A stretch of 64,000 nt of DNA from NCBI RefSeq assembly GCF_057098645.1, contig NZ_CM169472.1; one strand, given 5' to 3'. Positions 3,881 through 10,889 of this stretch are shown piece by piece (within the stretch, counting starts at the first letter, position 1; the number at the start of each line of letters is the position of its first letter). The notes under the pieces were generated by a model. That model had not been told where the DNA came from and searched no databases. It saw only the letters and a program-made list of their open reading frames with translations. The position numbers and the translations under genes are program-made.

Positions 3881-6800
3881 TTACGCCTTCTCGATGTTGA
3901 CTAAGAACGCTTTATATTCCGGCGTTTGCGAGTTTGCATCACCGACATTCGGCGTCAGAGTGTTAGCGATATAACCTTTACGCGCGACACCCTCAAAGCC
4001 CCAGTGGATTGGAATACCCACCGTTTCAACCTGCTGACCATTTACATTCAGCGGTTTCAGACGACGCGTTACCACAGCCACCGCGCGGATAAAGCCACGC
4101 TTGCTTGAGACAGTGACACGATCGCCATTATTAATGCCTTTCGCCGCCGCCAGCGTTTCGCTGATTTCCACAAACTGTTCCGGCTGAGCAATTGCGTTGA
4201 GCAATGCGTGCTTGGTCCAGGTGTGGAAGTGCTCGGTCAGACGATAGGTCGTACCCACATACGGGAACTGCTCTTTTTTACCCATCCGCAGTGCGTCTTG
4301 TTCATACAGACGAACAACCGGGTTAGACACCACGTTCGGATGCAGCGGGTTAGTGCCCAGTGGCGTTTCAATCGGCTCGTAGTGTTCCGGGAACGGACCT
4401 TCCGCCATTTTGTTGATGGCAAACAGGCGTCCCATCCCTTCCGGCTGCATGATAAACGGCCCGGTTGGCGTACCCGGTGCGGCATTGCCGAAGTCAGGAA
4501 TATCGTTACCCGTCCACTTGCTGCCGTTCCACTGGATCAGCATCCGTTTCGGATCCCACGGTTTACCGTTGATATCCGCCGAAGCACGGTTGTACAGCAC
4601 GCGACGGTTGAGCGGCCACGCCCAAGCCCATCCCAGCGTATTCCCCAGACCGGACGGGTCGGAGTTATCGAGGTTAGCCATCTGGTTGCCCTGCTCTGTC
4701 CAGCTACCGGTGTAGATCCAGCAAGAAGATGCGGTTGTACCGTCATCACGCAGATGCGCAAAGCTACTCAGCAACTGACCTTTCTTCGCAATCAGCACGC
4801 CATTAGCATCATAGAGATCTTCCAGCGCATAGCCGTTGTTCTCTTTAGCTACTTCGTCAGATTGCGGTTCGTGCGGCTGCTTGTAGTTCCAGCTCATCTT
4901 CATCAGCGGTTCTACGCCTTTACCACCTTCGGCCTGGTACAGCTCGCGCAGGTGATGGTAGATACCCGCCAGAATTTCACCGTCGTTACGCGCTTCGCCC
5001 GGCGCATCCTGACCTTTCCAGTGCCACTGCAGCCAGCGACCGGAGTTAGCAATAGAACCATCTTCTTCAGCAAAGCAGGTCGAAGGCAGACGGAATACTT
5101 CAGTCTGAATAGACGCCGGATCGACATCGTTCGACTCGCCGTGGTTCTGCCAGAAGGTTGAGGTTTCAGTCACCAGCGGATCGATAACCACCATGTACTT
5201 CAGCTTGCTCAGGCAGCTCACCACTTTGTTTTTGTCCGGGAAGGACGCAACCGGGTTAAAGCCCTGGCAGAAATAACCGGTGACTTTGCCTTCATCCATC
5301 ATGTTGAAATACTTGATGACGTCGTAGGTCTGGTCCCACTTCGGCAGCCAGTCATAGCCCCAGTTGTTCTCTTTCTGCGCGGCATCGCCATAGAAAGATT
5401 TCATCAGGCTAACGAAGAACTTCGGATAGTTGCTCCAGTAGTTCACCTGACCAGCCAGCGTCGCTTTCGGCGTGTTCGCTTCCAGATACGACTGCAAATC
5501 AACCTGTTTTTCTGACGGCAGCGTCAGATAACCTGGCAGGCTGGTAGAGAGCAGACCTAAGTCAGTCAGACCCTGAATGTTGGAGTGACCACGCAATGCA
5601 TTCACGCCGCCACCGGCCATACCCATGTTACCGAGCAGCAACTGGATCATCGCCATAATACGGATGTTCTGCGCACCCACGGTGTGCTGCGTCCAGCCCA
5701 GCGCGTACAGGAAGGTGGTTGTGCGATCCGGTGCGCTGGTGGAGGCCAGCACTTCACACACTTTCAGGAAGTCGGCTTTTGGCGTACCACAGATGTTTTC
5801 AACAACGTCCGGCGTGTAGCGGGAAACGTGCGCTTTCAGCAGGTTCCACACACAGCGCGGATGAGTCAGTGTTTCATCGCGTTTCGCATAGCCGTTTTCA
5901 TCGAACTGATAGTTCCAGGACGATTTATCGTATTGCCGTTTTTCAGCGTCGTAGCCGCTGAACAGACCGTCTTCGAAAGCAAAATCATCACGCACCAGCA
6001 GGCTGGCGTTGGTGTAATGCTTAACGTATTCGGCGTTGATTTTGTCGTTTTCGATCAGGTAGCGCAAAACGCCAGACAGGAACGTAATGTCCGTACCGGA
6101 ACGAATAGGTGCGTAAATATCCGCCACAGAAGCGGTACGCGTAAAACGGGGATCGACAACGATCAAGGTTGCATCGTTGTTGTTTTTCGCTTCCATCGCC
6201 CAGCGGAAACCGACGGGATGCGCTTCAGCAGCGTTACCGCCCATTACCATTACGACGTTAGCGTTTTTGATATCCACCCAGTGGTTGGTCATCGCACCGC
6301 GACCAAATGTTGGAGCAAGACTTGCTACCGTTGGTCCGTGTCAGACGCGCGCCTGGTTGTCTACCGCCAGCATCCCGAGGGAGCGGGCAAATTTCTGGGT
6401 CAGCATCCCGGTTTCGTTGCTGGCACCGGAAGCACACAGCATACCGGTAGAAAGCCAACGGTTTACCGTTACGCCCTGCTCGTTCTTTTCAATAAAGTTA
6501 GCGTCACGGTCAGCTTTCATCAGCTTCGCAATACGGGAGAATGCTTCTTCCCAGCTAATGCGCTGCCATTTGTCAGAACCTAGCGCACGATATTCCGGGT
6601 AGCGCAGACGGTTTTCGCTGTTGACGTAATCCAGCAAACCGGCCCCTTTCGGGCACAGCGCACCACGGCTTACCGGATGATCCGGGTCACCTTCAATGTG
6701 ATAAATCGCTTCTCTGGCGTTTTTCGCGCCATCACCCAGGCTATACATCAATAGCCCGCAACCTACGGAACAGTATGTGCAGGTGTTACGGATCTCTTTA

Positions 6801-6928
6801 GCGCGTAATAATTTGTAGTTTCGCGCCTGAGCCAGTGCTTGCTTCGGGGCAAAGCCCAATGCCGCTACTGTTGTTCCAGCCATACCGCCCGCGCAGATTT
6901 TAAAAAATTGTCTGCGACTGACGTCCAT
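3881..6928 (-). CDS. fdnG: Formate dehydrogenase-N alpha subunit, selenocysteine-containing (in-frame UGA at 6341-6343), Tat signal
   Basis: Two ORF-track pieces (6341-6928 and 3881-6292) in the same frame separated only by TGA; N-terminal SRRQFFK twin-arginine motif; total 1015 codons. Confidence 0.9.
6290..6343 (-). other. UGA-Sec codon plus downstream SECIS stem-loop in fdnG mRNA
   Basis: mRNA reads GUC UGA CAC GGA CCA ACG GUA GCA AGU CUU GCU CCA ACA UUU GGU CG, which can fold as a stem-loop immediately 3' of UGA. Confidence 0.7.
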
Positions 6929-7159: not shown

Positions 7160-8041
7160 ATGACACGACAAAAAGCAACGCTCATAGGGCTGATAGCGAT
7201 CATCCTGTGGAGCACGATGGTAGGATTGATTCGCGGTGTCAGTGAGGGGCTCGGCCCGGTCGGCGGCGCAGCTGCTATCTATTCATTAAGCGGGCTGCTG
7301 TTAATCTTCACGGTTGGATTTCCGCGTATTCGGCAAATCCCGAAAGGCTATTTGCTCGCCGGGAGTCTGTTATTCGTCAGCTATGAAATCTGTCTGGCGC
7401 TTTCCTTAGGGTATGCGGCGACCCGTCATCAGGCGATTGAAGTGGGTATGGTGAACTATCTATGGCCCAGCCTGACAATTCTCTTTGCCATTCTGTTTAA
7501 TGGTCAGAAAACCAACTGGTTGATTGTACCAGGATTATTATTAGCCCTCGTCGGCGTCTGCTGGGTGTTAGGCGGTGACAATGGGTTACATTATGATGAA
7601 ATCATCAATAATATCACCACCAGTCCATTGAGTTATTTCCTGGCGTTTATTGGTGCGTTTATCTGGGCCGCTTATTGCACAGTAACGAATAAATACGCCC
7701 GCGGATTTAACGGAATTACCGTTTTTGTCCTGCTAACGGGAGCAAGTCTGTGGGTTTACTATTTTCTCACGCCACAACCAGAAATGGTATTTAGCACGCC
7801 CGTCATAATTAAACTCATCTCTGCGGCATTTACCTTAGGATTTGCTTATGCTGCATGGAATGTCGGTATATTGCATGGCAACGTCACCATTATGGCGGTA
7901 GGTTCGTATTTTACGCCCGTACTTTCCTCAGCGCTTGCAGCCGTGCTGCTCAGCGCCCCACTGTCGTTCTCATTCTGGCAAGGCGCGCTAATGGTCTGCG
8001 GCGGTTCCCTGCTCTGCTGGCTGGCGACACGTCGTGGTTAA
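7160..8041 (+). CDS. yddG: DMT-family aromatic amino acid exporter
   Basis: 293-aa polytopic membrane protein; synteny. Confidence 0.9.
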   Translation: MTRQKATLIGLIAIILWSTMVGLIRGVSEGLGPVGGAAAIYSLSGLLLIFTVGFPRIRQIPKGYLLAGSLLFVSYEICLALSLGYAATRHQAIEVGMVNYLWPSLTILFAILFNGQKTNWLIVPGLLLALVGVCWVLGGDNGLHYDEIINNITTSPLSYFLAFIGAFIWAAYCTVTNKYARGFNGITVFVLLTGASLWVYYFLTPQPEMVFSTPVIIKLISAAFTLGFAYAAWNVGILHGNVTIMAVGSYFTPVLSSALAAVLLSAPLSFSFWQGALMVCGGSLLCWLATRRG

Positions 8042-8045
8042 AATA

Positions 8046-8070
8046 ACTGCCGGGTCTACGGCCCGGCAGT
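8046..8070 (+). terminator. Hairpin ACTGCCGGG-N7-CCCGGCAGT after yddG (no clear U-tract)
   Basis: 9-bp inverted repeat 5 bp after yddG stop. Confidence 0.35.
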
Positions 8071-8300
8071 TAATCAGATAAATTCCGACAATATTAAAAG
8101 AATAAATTTCAAATACCAGCAATTCACCTTATATCTCATTTCGACTTCGATCACATATCGATAAATAATATTATTTCATCTATTTTTCTCATTGTTTTTA
8201 ATCACCATTCTATTTTAAAAACAGCATGTCATTTATAAATGACGCCGTTTAAAATTCGTTTAGGAAATACGTTTAACGATAATTAAAAGGATTCTGTTAA

Positions 8301-9398
8301 ATGAAATTAAAAATAGCGGTGGTTGTAACTGGTTTGTTAGCTGCGAACGTAGCACACGCTGCCGAAGTCTATAACAAGGATGGTAATAAACTCGACCTTT
8401 ATGGCAAGGTTACCGCTCTACGTTATTTTACTGATGATAAGCGTGACGATGGTGATAAAACTTATGCCCGTCTCGGCTTTAAAGGAGAAACGCAAATCAA
8501 TGATCAAATGATTGGTTTTGGTCACTGGGAATATGATTTTAAAGGCTATAACGATGAAGCCAACGGCTCGCGCGGCAACAAGACCCGTCTGGCCTATGCT
8601 GGTTTAAAAATTAGTGAATTTGGCTCTCTGGACTATGGTCGTAACTACGGTGTCGGCTATGACATTGGTTCATGGACCGATATGTTGCCAGAATTTGGTG
8701 GCGATACCTGGAGTCAGAAAGATGTCTTCATGACATACCGTACCACCGGTGTAGCAACCTATCGCAACTACGATTTCTTTGGCTTAATTGAAGGGCTGAA
8801 CTTTGCCGCGCAATATCAAGGCAAAAATGAACGTACTGACAACAGTCATCTTTATGGTGCTGACTACACGCGTGCCAACGGTGACGGTTTCGGTATCTCC
8901 TCAACTTATGTTTATGATGGCTTTGGTATCGGTGCGGTATATACCAAATCCGATCGGACAAATGCGCAGGAAAGAGCCGCTGCTAATCCTCTCAATGCCT
9001 CCGGTAAGAATGCAGAACTGTGGGCCACAGGTATAAAGTATGATGCCAACAACATCTACTTTGCAGCTAATTACGCTGAAACATTAAACATGACCACCTA
9101 TGGGGATGGTTATATCTCGAACAAAGCACAAAGTTTTGAAGTGGTGGCGCAATATCAATTCGACTTCGGCTTGCGCCCATCACTCGCTTACCTGAAATCG
9201 AAAGGCAGAGATCTGGGCCGCTACGGCGACCAGGACATGATTGAGTATATCGACGTTGGTGCGACGTATTTCTTCAACCAAAATATGTCGACCTATGTTG
9301 ATTATAAAATCAACCTGATTGATGAAAGCGACTTTACCCGTGCCGTAGATATTCGCACCGATAACATCGTCGCAACGGGCATTACCTATCAGTTCTAA
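8301..9398 (+). CDS. yddL: General outer-membrane porin (OmpC/OmpF/PhoE family), intact 365 aa
   Basis: Signal peptide ending AHA|AEVY; beta-barrel porin sequence with C-terminal Phe; low-GC flanks; the K-12 ortholog is a pseudogene as far as I recall. Confidence 0.8.
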
Positions 9399-9411
9399 CA
9401 TCCTCTCCTGA

Positions 9412-9437
9412 CCAGCCCTTCTCTGGGCTGGTTTTTG
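9412..9437 (+). terminator. Rho-independent terminator (CCAGCCC-N6-GGGCTGG + TTTTT)
   Basis: GC stem followed by T5, 14 bp after porin stop. Confidence 0.8.
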
Positions 9438-9567
9438 ATTTAAGTGCTGCTGTATGACTCCTTAAGTAAAAATGAGCAATTTTTGATATTTCTGATCATT
9501 CACCTCAATTAATATTATTCCATACCCTCCGGGGACATCTTACTATAATATTTATTGATGAGTGATT

Positions 9568-10827
9568 ATGACCAATATTAATACAGCTTGTGTAAAAAAT
9601 AATGCCAGTTATCAATTTAATAACGCATTACCTAACAAAGAAACCATCTCCAGCAATTTTTGTGAACGACTAGAACAATGGGGTAATAAGTCGCTTAATA
9701 ATGGTGAAGAAAGAGCAATTGCCGTGGAGCGAATTAAAGAAGCTTACAATTCGAACATGGCATCTCTTGATTTGTCATATCTTGATTTGAGTGAGTTGCC
9801 GCCTATCCCTTCGACAGTTAATACGTTAAATCTGGAAAACAATTGTCTAACTTGCCTTGACTTTGCTGACAATGCTAGTCTCGTCAATATCAACCTCAGC
9901 TTTAATAAAATTAAAACGATAACCTTTCCAAATGAATCAAAACTGGAAAATATTTATATTGATCATAACGATCTGGAAAGTTTAGATTTTAAAAACCAAA
10001 ATTCATTGATTAATCTGGAAGCACAAAATAACAACCTGACAAAAATTAATATTTCTGAAAGTTATAAACTGAAATTTCTTAATCTTGATTATAACAAACT
10101 ATCATCACTGGATCTCTCCCGGCAAGAGTCTCTGATTGAGTTAAGTGCCCATCACAATATGATCACTGACCTTATATTACACAATCATCCCAGGATGAAA
10201 ACAATCACTTTAAACGACAACCATATTGCACATTTAAACACCAAAACCACTACAAAACTTGAATATTTAAACTTAAGCAATAACAATTTATTGCCAACCA
10301 ATGACATTGATCAACTAATATCATCAAAACATCTTTGGCATGTATTAGTTAACGGCATCGACAATGATTCACTTGCACAAATGCAGTACTGGACTGCAGT
10401 AAGAAATATAATTGATGACACTAATGAAGTGACCATTGATTTATCTTATAATCTGGCAATCACAAATATCGATACCAGTGATGAACATCTTGTAGAAGTA
10501 AGCGATAATTCAGAAGGTAATTATATAAAAGACAATGACTCAATGTCTATTCGTTATAGATCAAAATATTATTCCAGAGATTCCGCCTTAATAGAAGAAG
10601 AAACAATATTTTCTGACGCAGAACTAAAAGCTATTCTGCCTATGCGTCGCATGTACGGGGTTGGTGACTATAAGTCAAATTCCTCTTCTCTATCCTCACT
10701 CTCGGGGCTCAAGGACCCAACGGGCACACCCGTCTGTTATTATATTCATAATGAGAGTAAACCTTCCTTAGGTTATGGTCCAACATGCAATAATTGGTTA
10801 AGCCAATCCTTTACAACAGAGTTATAA
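9568..10827 (+). CDS. yddK: Leucine-rich repeat protein with IpaH/SspH-like N-terminal LRR region, no NEL domain
   Basis: ~22-residue LxxLxLxxNxL repeats; N-terminal W..GEER..AV.RIKE...LDLS.L.LSELP resembles IpaH-family LRR N-termini; AT-rich. Confidence 0.75.
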   Translation: MTNINTACVKNNASYQFNNALPNKETISSNFCERLEQWGNKSLNNGEERAIAVERIKEAYNSNMASLDLSYLDLSELPPIPSTVNTLNLENNCLTCLDFADNASLVNINLSFNKIKTITFPNESKLENIYIDHNDLESLDFKNQNSLINLEAQNNNLTKINISESYKLKFLNLDYNKLSSLDLSRQESLIELSAHHNMITDLILHNHPRMKTITLNDNHIAHLNTKTTTKLEYLNLSNNNLLPTNDIDQLISSKHLWHVLVNGIDNDSLAQMQYWTAVRNIIDDTNEVTIDLSYNLAITNIDTSDEHLVEVSDNSEGNYIKDNDSMSIRYRSKYYSRDSALIEEETIFSDAELKAILPMRRMYGVGDYKSNSSSLSSLSGLKDPTGTPVCYYIHNESKPSLGYGPTCNNWLSQSFTTEL

Positions 10828-10836
10828 AACACATCC

Positions 10837-10860
10837 TGATTTATCAAGGGTGATAAATCA
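10837..10860. other. Perfect palindrome TGATTTATCA-N4-TGATAAATCA between the two LRR genes
   Basis: 10-bp perfect inverted repeat 10 bp after LRR1 stop and 30 bp before LRR2 start. Confidence 0.5.
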
Positions 10861-10889
10861 GAAAAACATTGTATTACTACGGAGCAGTT

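Follow-up and report, generated by a model that had tools for sequence, protein, structure and literature searches.

The genes for two leucine-rich-repeat (LRR) proteins of Escherichia coli are separated by a short spacer that contains a perfect palindrome, which raises the question of whether this repeat controls either gene. An earlier note on this DNA proposed an intercistronic hairpin (an attenuator or RNase target) or else a binding site for a dimeric regulator that uncouples the expression of the two paralogues. We give about even chances to a plainer reading, namely that this is a single-copy, lineage-specific quasi-palindrome that forms a passive AU-rich intercistronic hairpin in the espR2–espR1 transcript and has at most a small effect on 3' decay or processing.

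The espR2–espR1 locus and its palindrome

The window analysed here (the whole 64-kb stretch of DNA) is 100% identical to E. coli O145 RM9872 and has the local gene order fdnG, yddG, a gene for an OmpC/OmpN-like porin, LRR1, LRR2, narU and narZ. The locus is O-island 62 of EHEC (PMC3079680), with a G+C content of 30–36% versus ∼ 50% in its flanks. LRR1 and LRR2 correspond to EspR2 and EspR1, distant paralogues with 30% identity over the LRR region, both of which match Pfam LRR models; EspR1 (ECs2073 / Z2242) is an effector of the type III secretion system (T3SS) (PMC2749873). In O157, espR2 is a split pseudogene, EspR2' (ECs2075 plus ECs2074) (PMC5931665). In the window it is an intact open reading frame (ORF), of which RefSeq annotates just a 288-nt 'hypothetical protein' pseudogene piece (10159–10446). 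According to a protein search, the EspR1 family is confined to Escherichia. When contigs from outside E. coli were searched with EspR1, only two matched, with E. coli espR1 at 91–96% identity in the assemblies of a 'Bacillota bacterium' metagenome-assembled genome (L009) and of Terrisporobacter mayombei DSM 6539 (L010); both are probably E. coli contamination. The features of the junction are as follows.

9562–10827, plus strand: LRR1 = EspR2, an intact ORF of 421 amino acids (from the ORF, sequence comparison, the table in PMC5931665, and PMC3079680)
10836–10846, plus strand: left arm of the palindrome, CTGATTTATCA, read from the sequence and the same in five of seven alleles (A10839>G in O157, T10842>A in allele F)
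10847–10850, plus strand: 4-nt spacer or loop AGGG, read from the sequence (AGGA in the two most divergent alleles)
10851–10861, plus strand: right arm, TGATAAATCAG; the alleles have G or A at 10852, with A leading to a C·A mismatch on the plus strand, and G, T or A at 10861
10834–10863, minus strand: extended stem of 13 pairs that include one G·U, with the tail UGUGUUUUAU after it; terminator-like by a lenient pattern scan only
10862–10881, plus strand: A-rich hypervariable spacer from the hairpin to the espR1 ribosome-binding site (9 of 20 sites vary among six alleles)
10882–10885, plus strand: espR1 Shine-Dalgarno sequence GGAG, left unpaired by the hairpin in the predicted fold
10890–12146, plus strand: LRR2 = EspR1 (ECs2073 / Z2242), T3SS leucine-rich-repeat effector (orthology; PMC2749873)

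Other features of the neighbourhood include a strong terminator-like hairpin with a U-tract (9410–9433) after the porin gene. This hairpin, together with a G+C-rich repeat after the yddG stop codon, suggests that espR2 probably begins its own transcription unit; a candidate TATAAT for espR2 lies at 9544–9549. A second inverted repeat (12200–12236; 16-nt arms that are 88% complementary, a 5-nt loop and no U-tract on the coding strand) sits 53 nt past the espR1 stop codon, before narU. On the minus strand, fdnG (3881–6928) appears as two ORFs (6341–6928 and 3881–6292) and is unrelated to the palindrome; presumably, an in-frame selenocysteine UGA codon accounts for the split.

The palindrome that the earlier note placed between the LRR genes is indeed there, with perfect 10-bp arms, TGATTTATCA (10837–10846) and TGATAAATCA (10851–10860), around AGGG (10847–10850), and it is longer than described, since the pair C10836/G10861 adds one base per side to give arms of 11 bp. 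It lies, as stated, after the LRR1 stop codon (TAA, 10825–10827) and before the LRR2 start codon (ATG, 10890) in a 62-nt spacer within the AT-rich O-island. The distances of 10 and 30 bp given for it are each one too many: the gap from the stop codon to the arm is 9 nt for the 10-bp arm (8 nt for the 11-bp arm) and that from the arm to ATG is 29 nt (28 nt).

This palindrome is real and unlikely to arise by chance. The window holds three perfect inverted repeats with arms of 11 bp or more and loops of 3–8 nt, compared with 0.15 expected from dinucleotide shuffles; the other two (8044–8072, just after the yddG stop codon, and 2287–2318) are both G+C-rich. When the 3-kb AT-rich island was shuffled by itself, 1.1% of the shuffles held such a repeat (p ∼ 0.01). 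The 24-mer with up to three mismatches occurs once in the window, versus 0.01 expected.

As RNA, a 30-nt segment is predicted to form a hairpin on either strand, at −12.6 kcal/mol for the plus strand (z = −4.5) and −13.3 kcal/mol for the minus strand (z = −5.7). The stem is AU-rich, with G-C at 3 of its 11 pairs. The espR1 Shine-Dalgarno sequence, 21 nt downstream, is in no stable helix in the predicted hairpin fold, which argues against the hairpin being a translational occluder. An Rfam scan of 8000–13000 at E ≤ 10 placed no family on the hairpin, and there are no plausible small ORFs spanning it.

Copy number and variation among E. coli genomes

The distribution of the motif was determined by a blastn search of 5426 complete E. 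coli genomes with a 43-nt probe across the hairpin. The probe matched 1016 of them, at exactly one place each and always on the chromosome, and none of the 5426 contained a second copy. About a fifth of the complete E. coli genomes carry the two effectors. At up to three mismatches the 24-mer has no match in the window beyond its own site and none in the Sakai Sp3 region (nleB2-1, nleC, nleH1-1, nleD). The earlier note had suggested a search for the palindrome elsewhere as a sign of a regulon; its absence from all of these places speaks against a regulon signature or shared operator. The single copy per carrier genome also led us to reject repeated palindromic elements (REP/BIME, ERIC or MITE ends). 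In viral contigs, a search for the palindrome with a spacer of 2–8 nt gave 10 matches, all in AT-rich contexts unrelated to the espR2–espR1 locus; three of these contigs are mutually homologous, the total is about that expected by chance, and a phage operator family was rejected accordingly.

In complete genomes and 20 metagenomic contigs, the spacer occurs as seven alleles, listed here with their carriers.

Allele A, this window: the reference, perfect over 11 bp
Allele B, L006 and others: perfect, with a different downstream spacer
Allele C, the most frequent one in the metagenomic contigs: with TAATAAATCA as arm 2, the pair 10845/10852 becomes C·A in the plus strand, U·G in the minus strand
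Allele D, O157:H7: with TGGTTTATCA as arm 1, the pair at 10839 becomes G·U in the plus strand, C·A in the minus strand
Allele E, L007: loop AGGA and a TAAT arm
Allele F, L019: like E, with an added A·A mismatch and two mismatches in all
Allele G, L045 (strain CP52E): C10835>T, perfect over 13 bp, TTCTGATTTATCA-AGGG-TGATAAATCAGAA

An arm mismatch is thus present in four of the seven alleles. Of the 1016 carriers, ∼ 270 match the probe at 99% identity or more, 364 at 95–99%, 360 at 90–95% and 22 at 80–90%; these bands were matched in that order to alleles A and B, D (plus G), C and E, an assignment inferred from sampled matches only. The alleles read from the top band, which holds ∼ 27% of the carriers, are perfect, and ∼ 73% of the carriers fall outside it. 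Two-fold symmetry is therefore not a conserved property of this site: the palindrome is imperfect in most carriers, and there are no compensatory changes (those affecting both sides of a pair) among the alleles on either strand. Given the lack of compensatory changes and of an Rfam match at E ≤ 10, we rejected a conserved structured RNA element.

In six representative alleles, 5 of the 26 hairpin positions (19%) vary; the corresponding figures are 21% for espR2, 12% for espR1 and 45% for the A-rich spacer downstream. In alleles C, E and F the hairpin predicted for the plus strand is weak or absent, and that of the minus strand is weakened in alleles D (O157) and F. Every transition leaves a wobble pair on one strand while disrupting the pairing on the other, and the ∼ five events favour neither strand. 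Because TAAT is common to the divergent alleles E and F and to allele C, the imperfect repeat is probably the older and the perfect form derived, in a spacer whose alleles also show signs of recombination. Allele B, for instance, looks like a recombinant between alleles A and C. The A-rich spacer (10862–10881) varies at 9 of 20 sites and by an indel among alleles that are otherwise 87–98% identical. In CP52E, the C>T change at 10835 creates a pair, which fits quasi-palindrome correction and weak selection alike.

Transcription across the junction and the possible role of the hairpin

The proposal of an intercistronic hairpin or attenuator holds up in its first half: the repeat is flanked by LRR genes on the same strand and is predicted to fold if transcribed. 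The second half fails, as the plus strand has no U-tract. The tail after the stem reads GAAAAACAUUGU / GAAAAACAUU, and a terminator pattern scan of the plus strand found nothing at the hairpin. Without a U-tract, and with only 3 G-C among 11 pairs and a predicted −12.6 kcal/mol, an intrinsic terminator or attenuator on the plus strand was rejected. The resemblance to an intrinsic terminator is confined to the placement of a stem-loop just 3' of a stop codon and to the minus-strand version, which passes a lenient scan; the few G-C pairs, the missing U-tract on the coding strand and the lack of anything obvious to terminate on the minus strand all set it apart.

Expression data that bear on whether the two genes are uncoupled turned up for the O157:H7 strain PA20 alone. 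The log2 fold-changes in six comparisons were 0.54, 0.90, 1.44, 0.99, 0 and 0.99 for ECs2073 (espR1) and 0.18, 1.17, 1.35, 1.06, 0.04 and 1.1 for ECs2074, the 3' part of espR2' (PMC5931665). The two genes move together in all six comparisons and ECs2075 behaves otherwise (PMC5931665), which is weak evidence that transcription crosses the espR2–espR1 junction and, equally weakly, counts against uncoupled expression of the paralogues. Uniform transcript coverage across the junction, named in the earlier note, along with a lack of recurrence, as the outcome that would speak against its proposal, is suggested to the same limited degree, by the PA20 fold-changes only. The literature on espR1 regulation that we searched contained nothing on a promoter, a transcription start, transcript ends or processing.

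If the palindrome is instead an operator, it would be bound by a dimeric DNA-binding protein over a weak espR1-specific promoter, for example AACACA (10828–10833), an 18-nt spacer and GATAAA (10852–10857), with a start at ∼ 10864 and a 26-nt leader. The window allele has perfect two-fold symmetry over 26 bp, which is improbable by chance, and a location between −54 and −29 relative to the ATG would be suitable. Moreover, EspR1 of O157 is listed among effector genes with expression changes despite the split pseudogene espR2 upstream (PMC5931665), so espR1 may have its own promoter. Nevertheless, a scan of the plus strand from 10700 to 10889 found no sigma-70-like site of at least 9/12 (the best match by hand was 7/12), and neither scanning nor inspection by hand revealed a convincing sigma-70 promoter on either strand of the spacer. 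The motif does not recur in the 5426 E. coli genomes, its symmetry is broken in ∼ 73% of carriers, and it is not known to fit any operator consensus. Sites for lambda cI/Cro, FNR, Fur and IHF were dismissed by eye against consensus sequences, on misfits of spacing or sequence, and are to be taken as leads only. Nor is the palindrome related to the block common to the Sakai nleB2-1 and nleH1-1 upstream regions. The latter comparison concerns the 13-bp 'nle regulatory inverted repeat' (NRIR) in front of nleH1, nleB2 and further effector genes outside the LEE, which PMC7142665, citing Garcia-Angulo et al. (2012), describes as common to a subset of effector genes. Like NRIR, the palindrome is an inverted repeat that precedes a T3SS effector gene outside the LEE in attaching-and-effacing E. 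coli; unlike NRIR, it has no second copy in O157 genomes. In the 2012 work, the NRIR sequence is reported to be conserved. Membership in this family was rejected because the palindrome has no second copy in O157 genomes and resembles neither of the Sakai regions upstream of nleB2-1 and nleH1-1, which stand in for the published NRIR sequence. On this balance, we regard an operator as unlikely.

An intrinsic terminator on the minus strand, which would stop antisense transcription from the AT-rich espR1 before it reaches espR2, is quite unlikely. It would account for the longer stem on that strand (13 pairs, −13.3 kcal/mol, z = −5.7) and for the U-rich tail, UGUGUUUUAU or, in allele E, UAUUUUUUAU; pairing is also kept in 94.9% of allele-by-pair cells there versus 89.4% on the plus strand. 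This preference amounts, however, to two substitution events versus one, only three pairs are G-C, allele E fails the lenient pattern scan that the window allele passes, and the stem is weaker in O157 and allele F. Moreover, the minus strand upstream (10861–12600) has no promoter-like site of at least 9/12, and there is no minus-strand gene within 1.8 kb. CsrA-type translational repression has been reported for nleA, with a CsrA/CesT circuit for NleA, and a similar RNA-binding protein could use the G-rich loop together with the GGA of the espR1 Shine-Dalgarno sequence (ACGGAG) to repress translation. GGA motifs that lie in hairpin loops or at a Shine-Dalgarno sequence are targets of CsrA (PMC9132389); in the loop region, CAAGGAU occurs in alleles E and F, and a second GGA is found at the Shine-Dalgarno sequence (ACGGAGC, 10880–10886), 34 nt downstream. 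In contrast to CsrA-binding hairpins, the loop is AGGG, with no GGA, in the window and most alleles, and the two divergent alleles that do have AGGA, E and F, have at best a weak hairpin, the plus-strand hairpin not being their predicted fold. The literature searched yielded no CsrA data for espR1, and we consider this mode of control very unlikely. A broader version, in which the palindrome is a dedicated post-transcriptional control element of EspR1 that is recognized by an RNA-binding protein (CsrA/CesT-type) or an RNase and times EspR1 apart from EspR2 while the differences among alleles, in the loop (AGGA or AGGG) and in the stem (perfect or mismatched), tune dosage between lineages, seems to us highly improbable. 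Very doubtful, too, is the suggestion that the arms are an inverted pair of high-affinity nucleation sites for H-NS (or Ler) that help to silence the island. The arms fit the high-affinity H-NS motif tCGATAAATT (PMC2094087) at 7/10 and 8/10, central T-A step included, and the island has just 30–36% G+C; yet fits of at least 7/10 come at 17.7 per kb in the island, which has seven sites of at least 8/10, so that the palindrome is not distinctive.

The passive intercistronic hairpin would work as follows. The palindrome would be transcribed from the plus strand together with espR2 and espR1, and the transcript would fold into an AU-rich stem of 11 bp with a 4-nt loop (∼ −12.6 kcal/mol). Its effect would be passive, at most that of a modest barrier to 3'-to-5' exonucleases or of a processing boundary beside the AU-rich spacer, and either would slightly favour the upstream cistron. 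Hairpins of the REP type, such as that of malE-malF, are intercistronic stem-loops that shield polycistronic mRNAs from 3' exonucleases. The espR2–espR1 hairpin resembles them in lacking a U-tract and in lying just past the upstream stop codon on the same strand as both genes. REP elements, however, are G+C-rich, far more stable and present in hundreds of copies, whereas this hairpin is AU-rich (∼ −12.6 kcal/mol), single-copy and not conserved.

The repeat probably became perfect through single transitions in an older, imperfect form, by drift or by a template-switch 'correction'. Quasi-palindromes are hotspots of template-switch mutation, and here, too, single substitutions perfect the arms (G at 10852, and T at 10835 in CP52E); unlike at such hotspots, the changes in other alleles cut complementarity, and the direction of change is inferred from a rough comparison of alleles only. 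There is no visible sign that selection maintains the hairpin, whose stem is about as variable as the coding DNA on either side (19% versus 12–21%). Three observations count against the passive reading: the perfect 11-bp repeat is locally improbable (p ∼ 0.01), variation in the hairpin is clearly below that in the spacer next to it (19% versus 45%), and two independent changes, G at 10852 and T at 10835 (CP52E), lengthen or perfect the repeat. These pairing gains could reflect weak selection for pairing. If the hairpin acts at all, it would slightly shift the balance of stability or translation between two little-studied effectors, EspR2 and EspR1. As a known and ordinary kind of feature it matters little, and the more useful outcome of the analysis is the context, that is, the identity of EspR2 and EspR1, the intact EspR2 of O145, unannotated in RefSeq, and the double-deletion chimera of K-12.

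Recombination between the LRR genes

Most E. coli lack the spacer altogether, having lost it by recombination between the two LRR genes. By comparison of the window with L003, L011 and L013, the K-12-type arrangement (yddL-yddK-yddJ) lacks the segments corresponding to window positions 8582–10113 and 10446–11086. Its junctions lie on microhomologies of 15 nt and 12 nt, the second of which, ATTGATTTATC, encodes IDLS in both LRR genes. The yddL-yddK-yddJ set of K-12 is a double-deletion chimera of the porin-espR2-espR1 island, and the deletions took the palindrome with them. An insertion of yddK was proposed instead in 2011 (PMC3079680). The 288-nt piece of espR2 that RefSeq annotates falls inside the segment that K-12-type genomes have kept (10114–10445).

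An independent deletion (9849–11465) in strain 5283 (L005) has produced an espR2/espR1 chimera with other breakpoints, and the matches in E. marmotae and other divergent genomes are likewise deletion chimeras without the spacer. The two LRR paralogues appear to have recombined repeatedly. The arm word TGATTTATCA occurs again at 11090 within espR1, in its IDLS codons. Likewise, TATCAATCTTGATA is found at 11147–11160 in espR1, where the SINLDN codons (11146–11161) form a near-copy of the inner palindrome, CTATCAATCTTGATAA. The return of the arm words inside espR1 indicates that LRR-coding DNA of such composition readily yields them.
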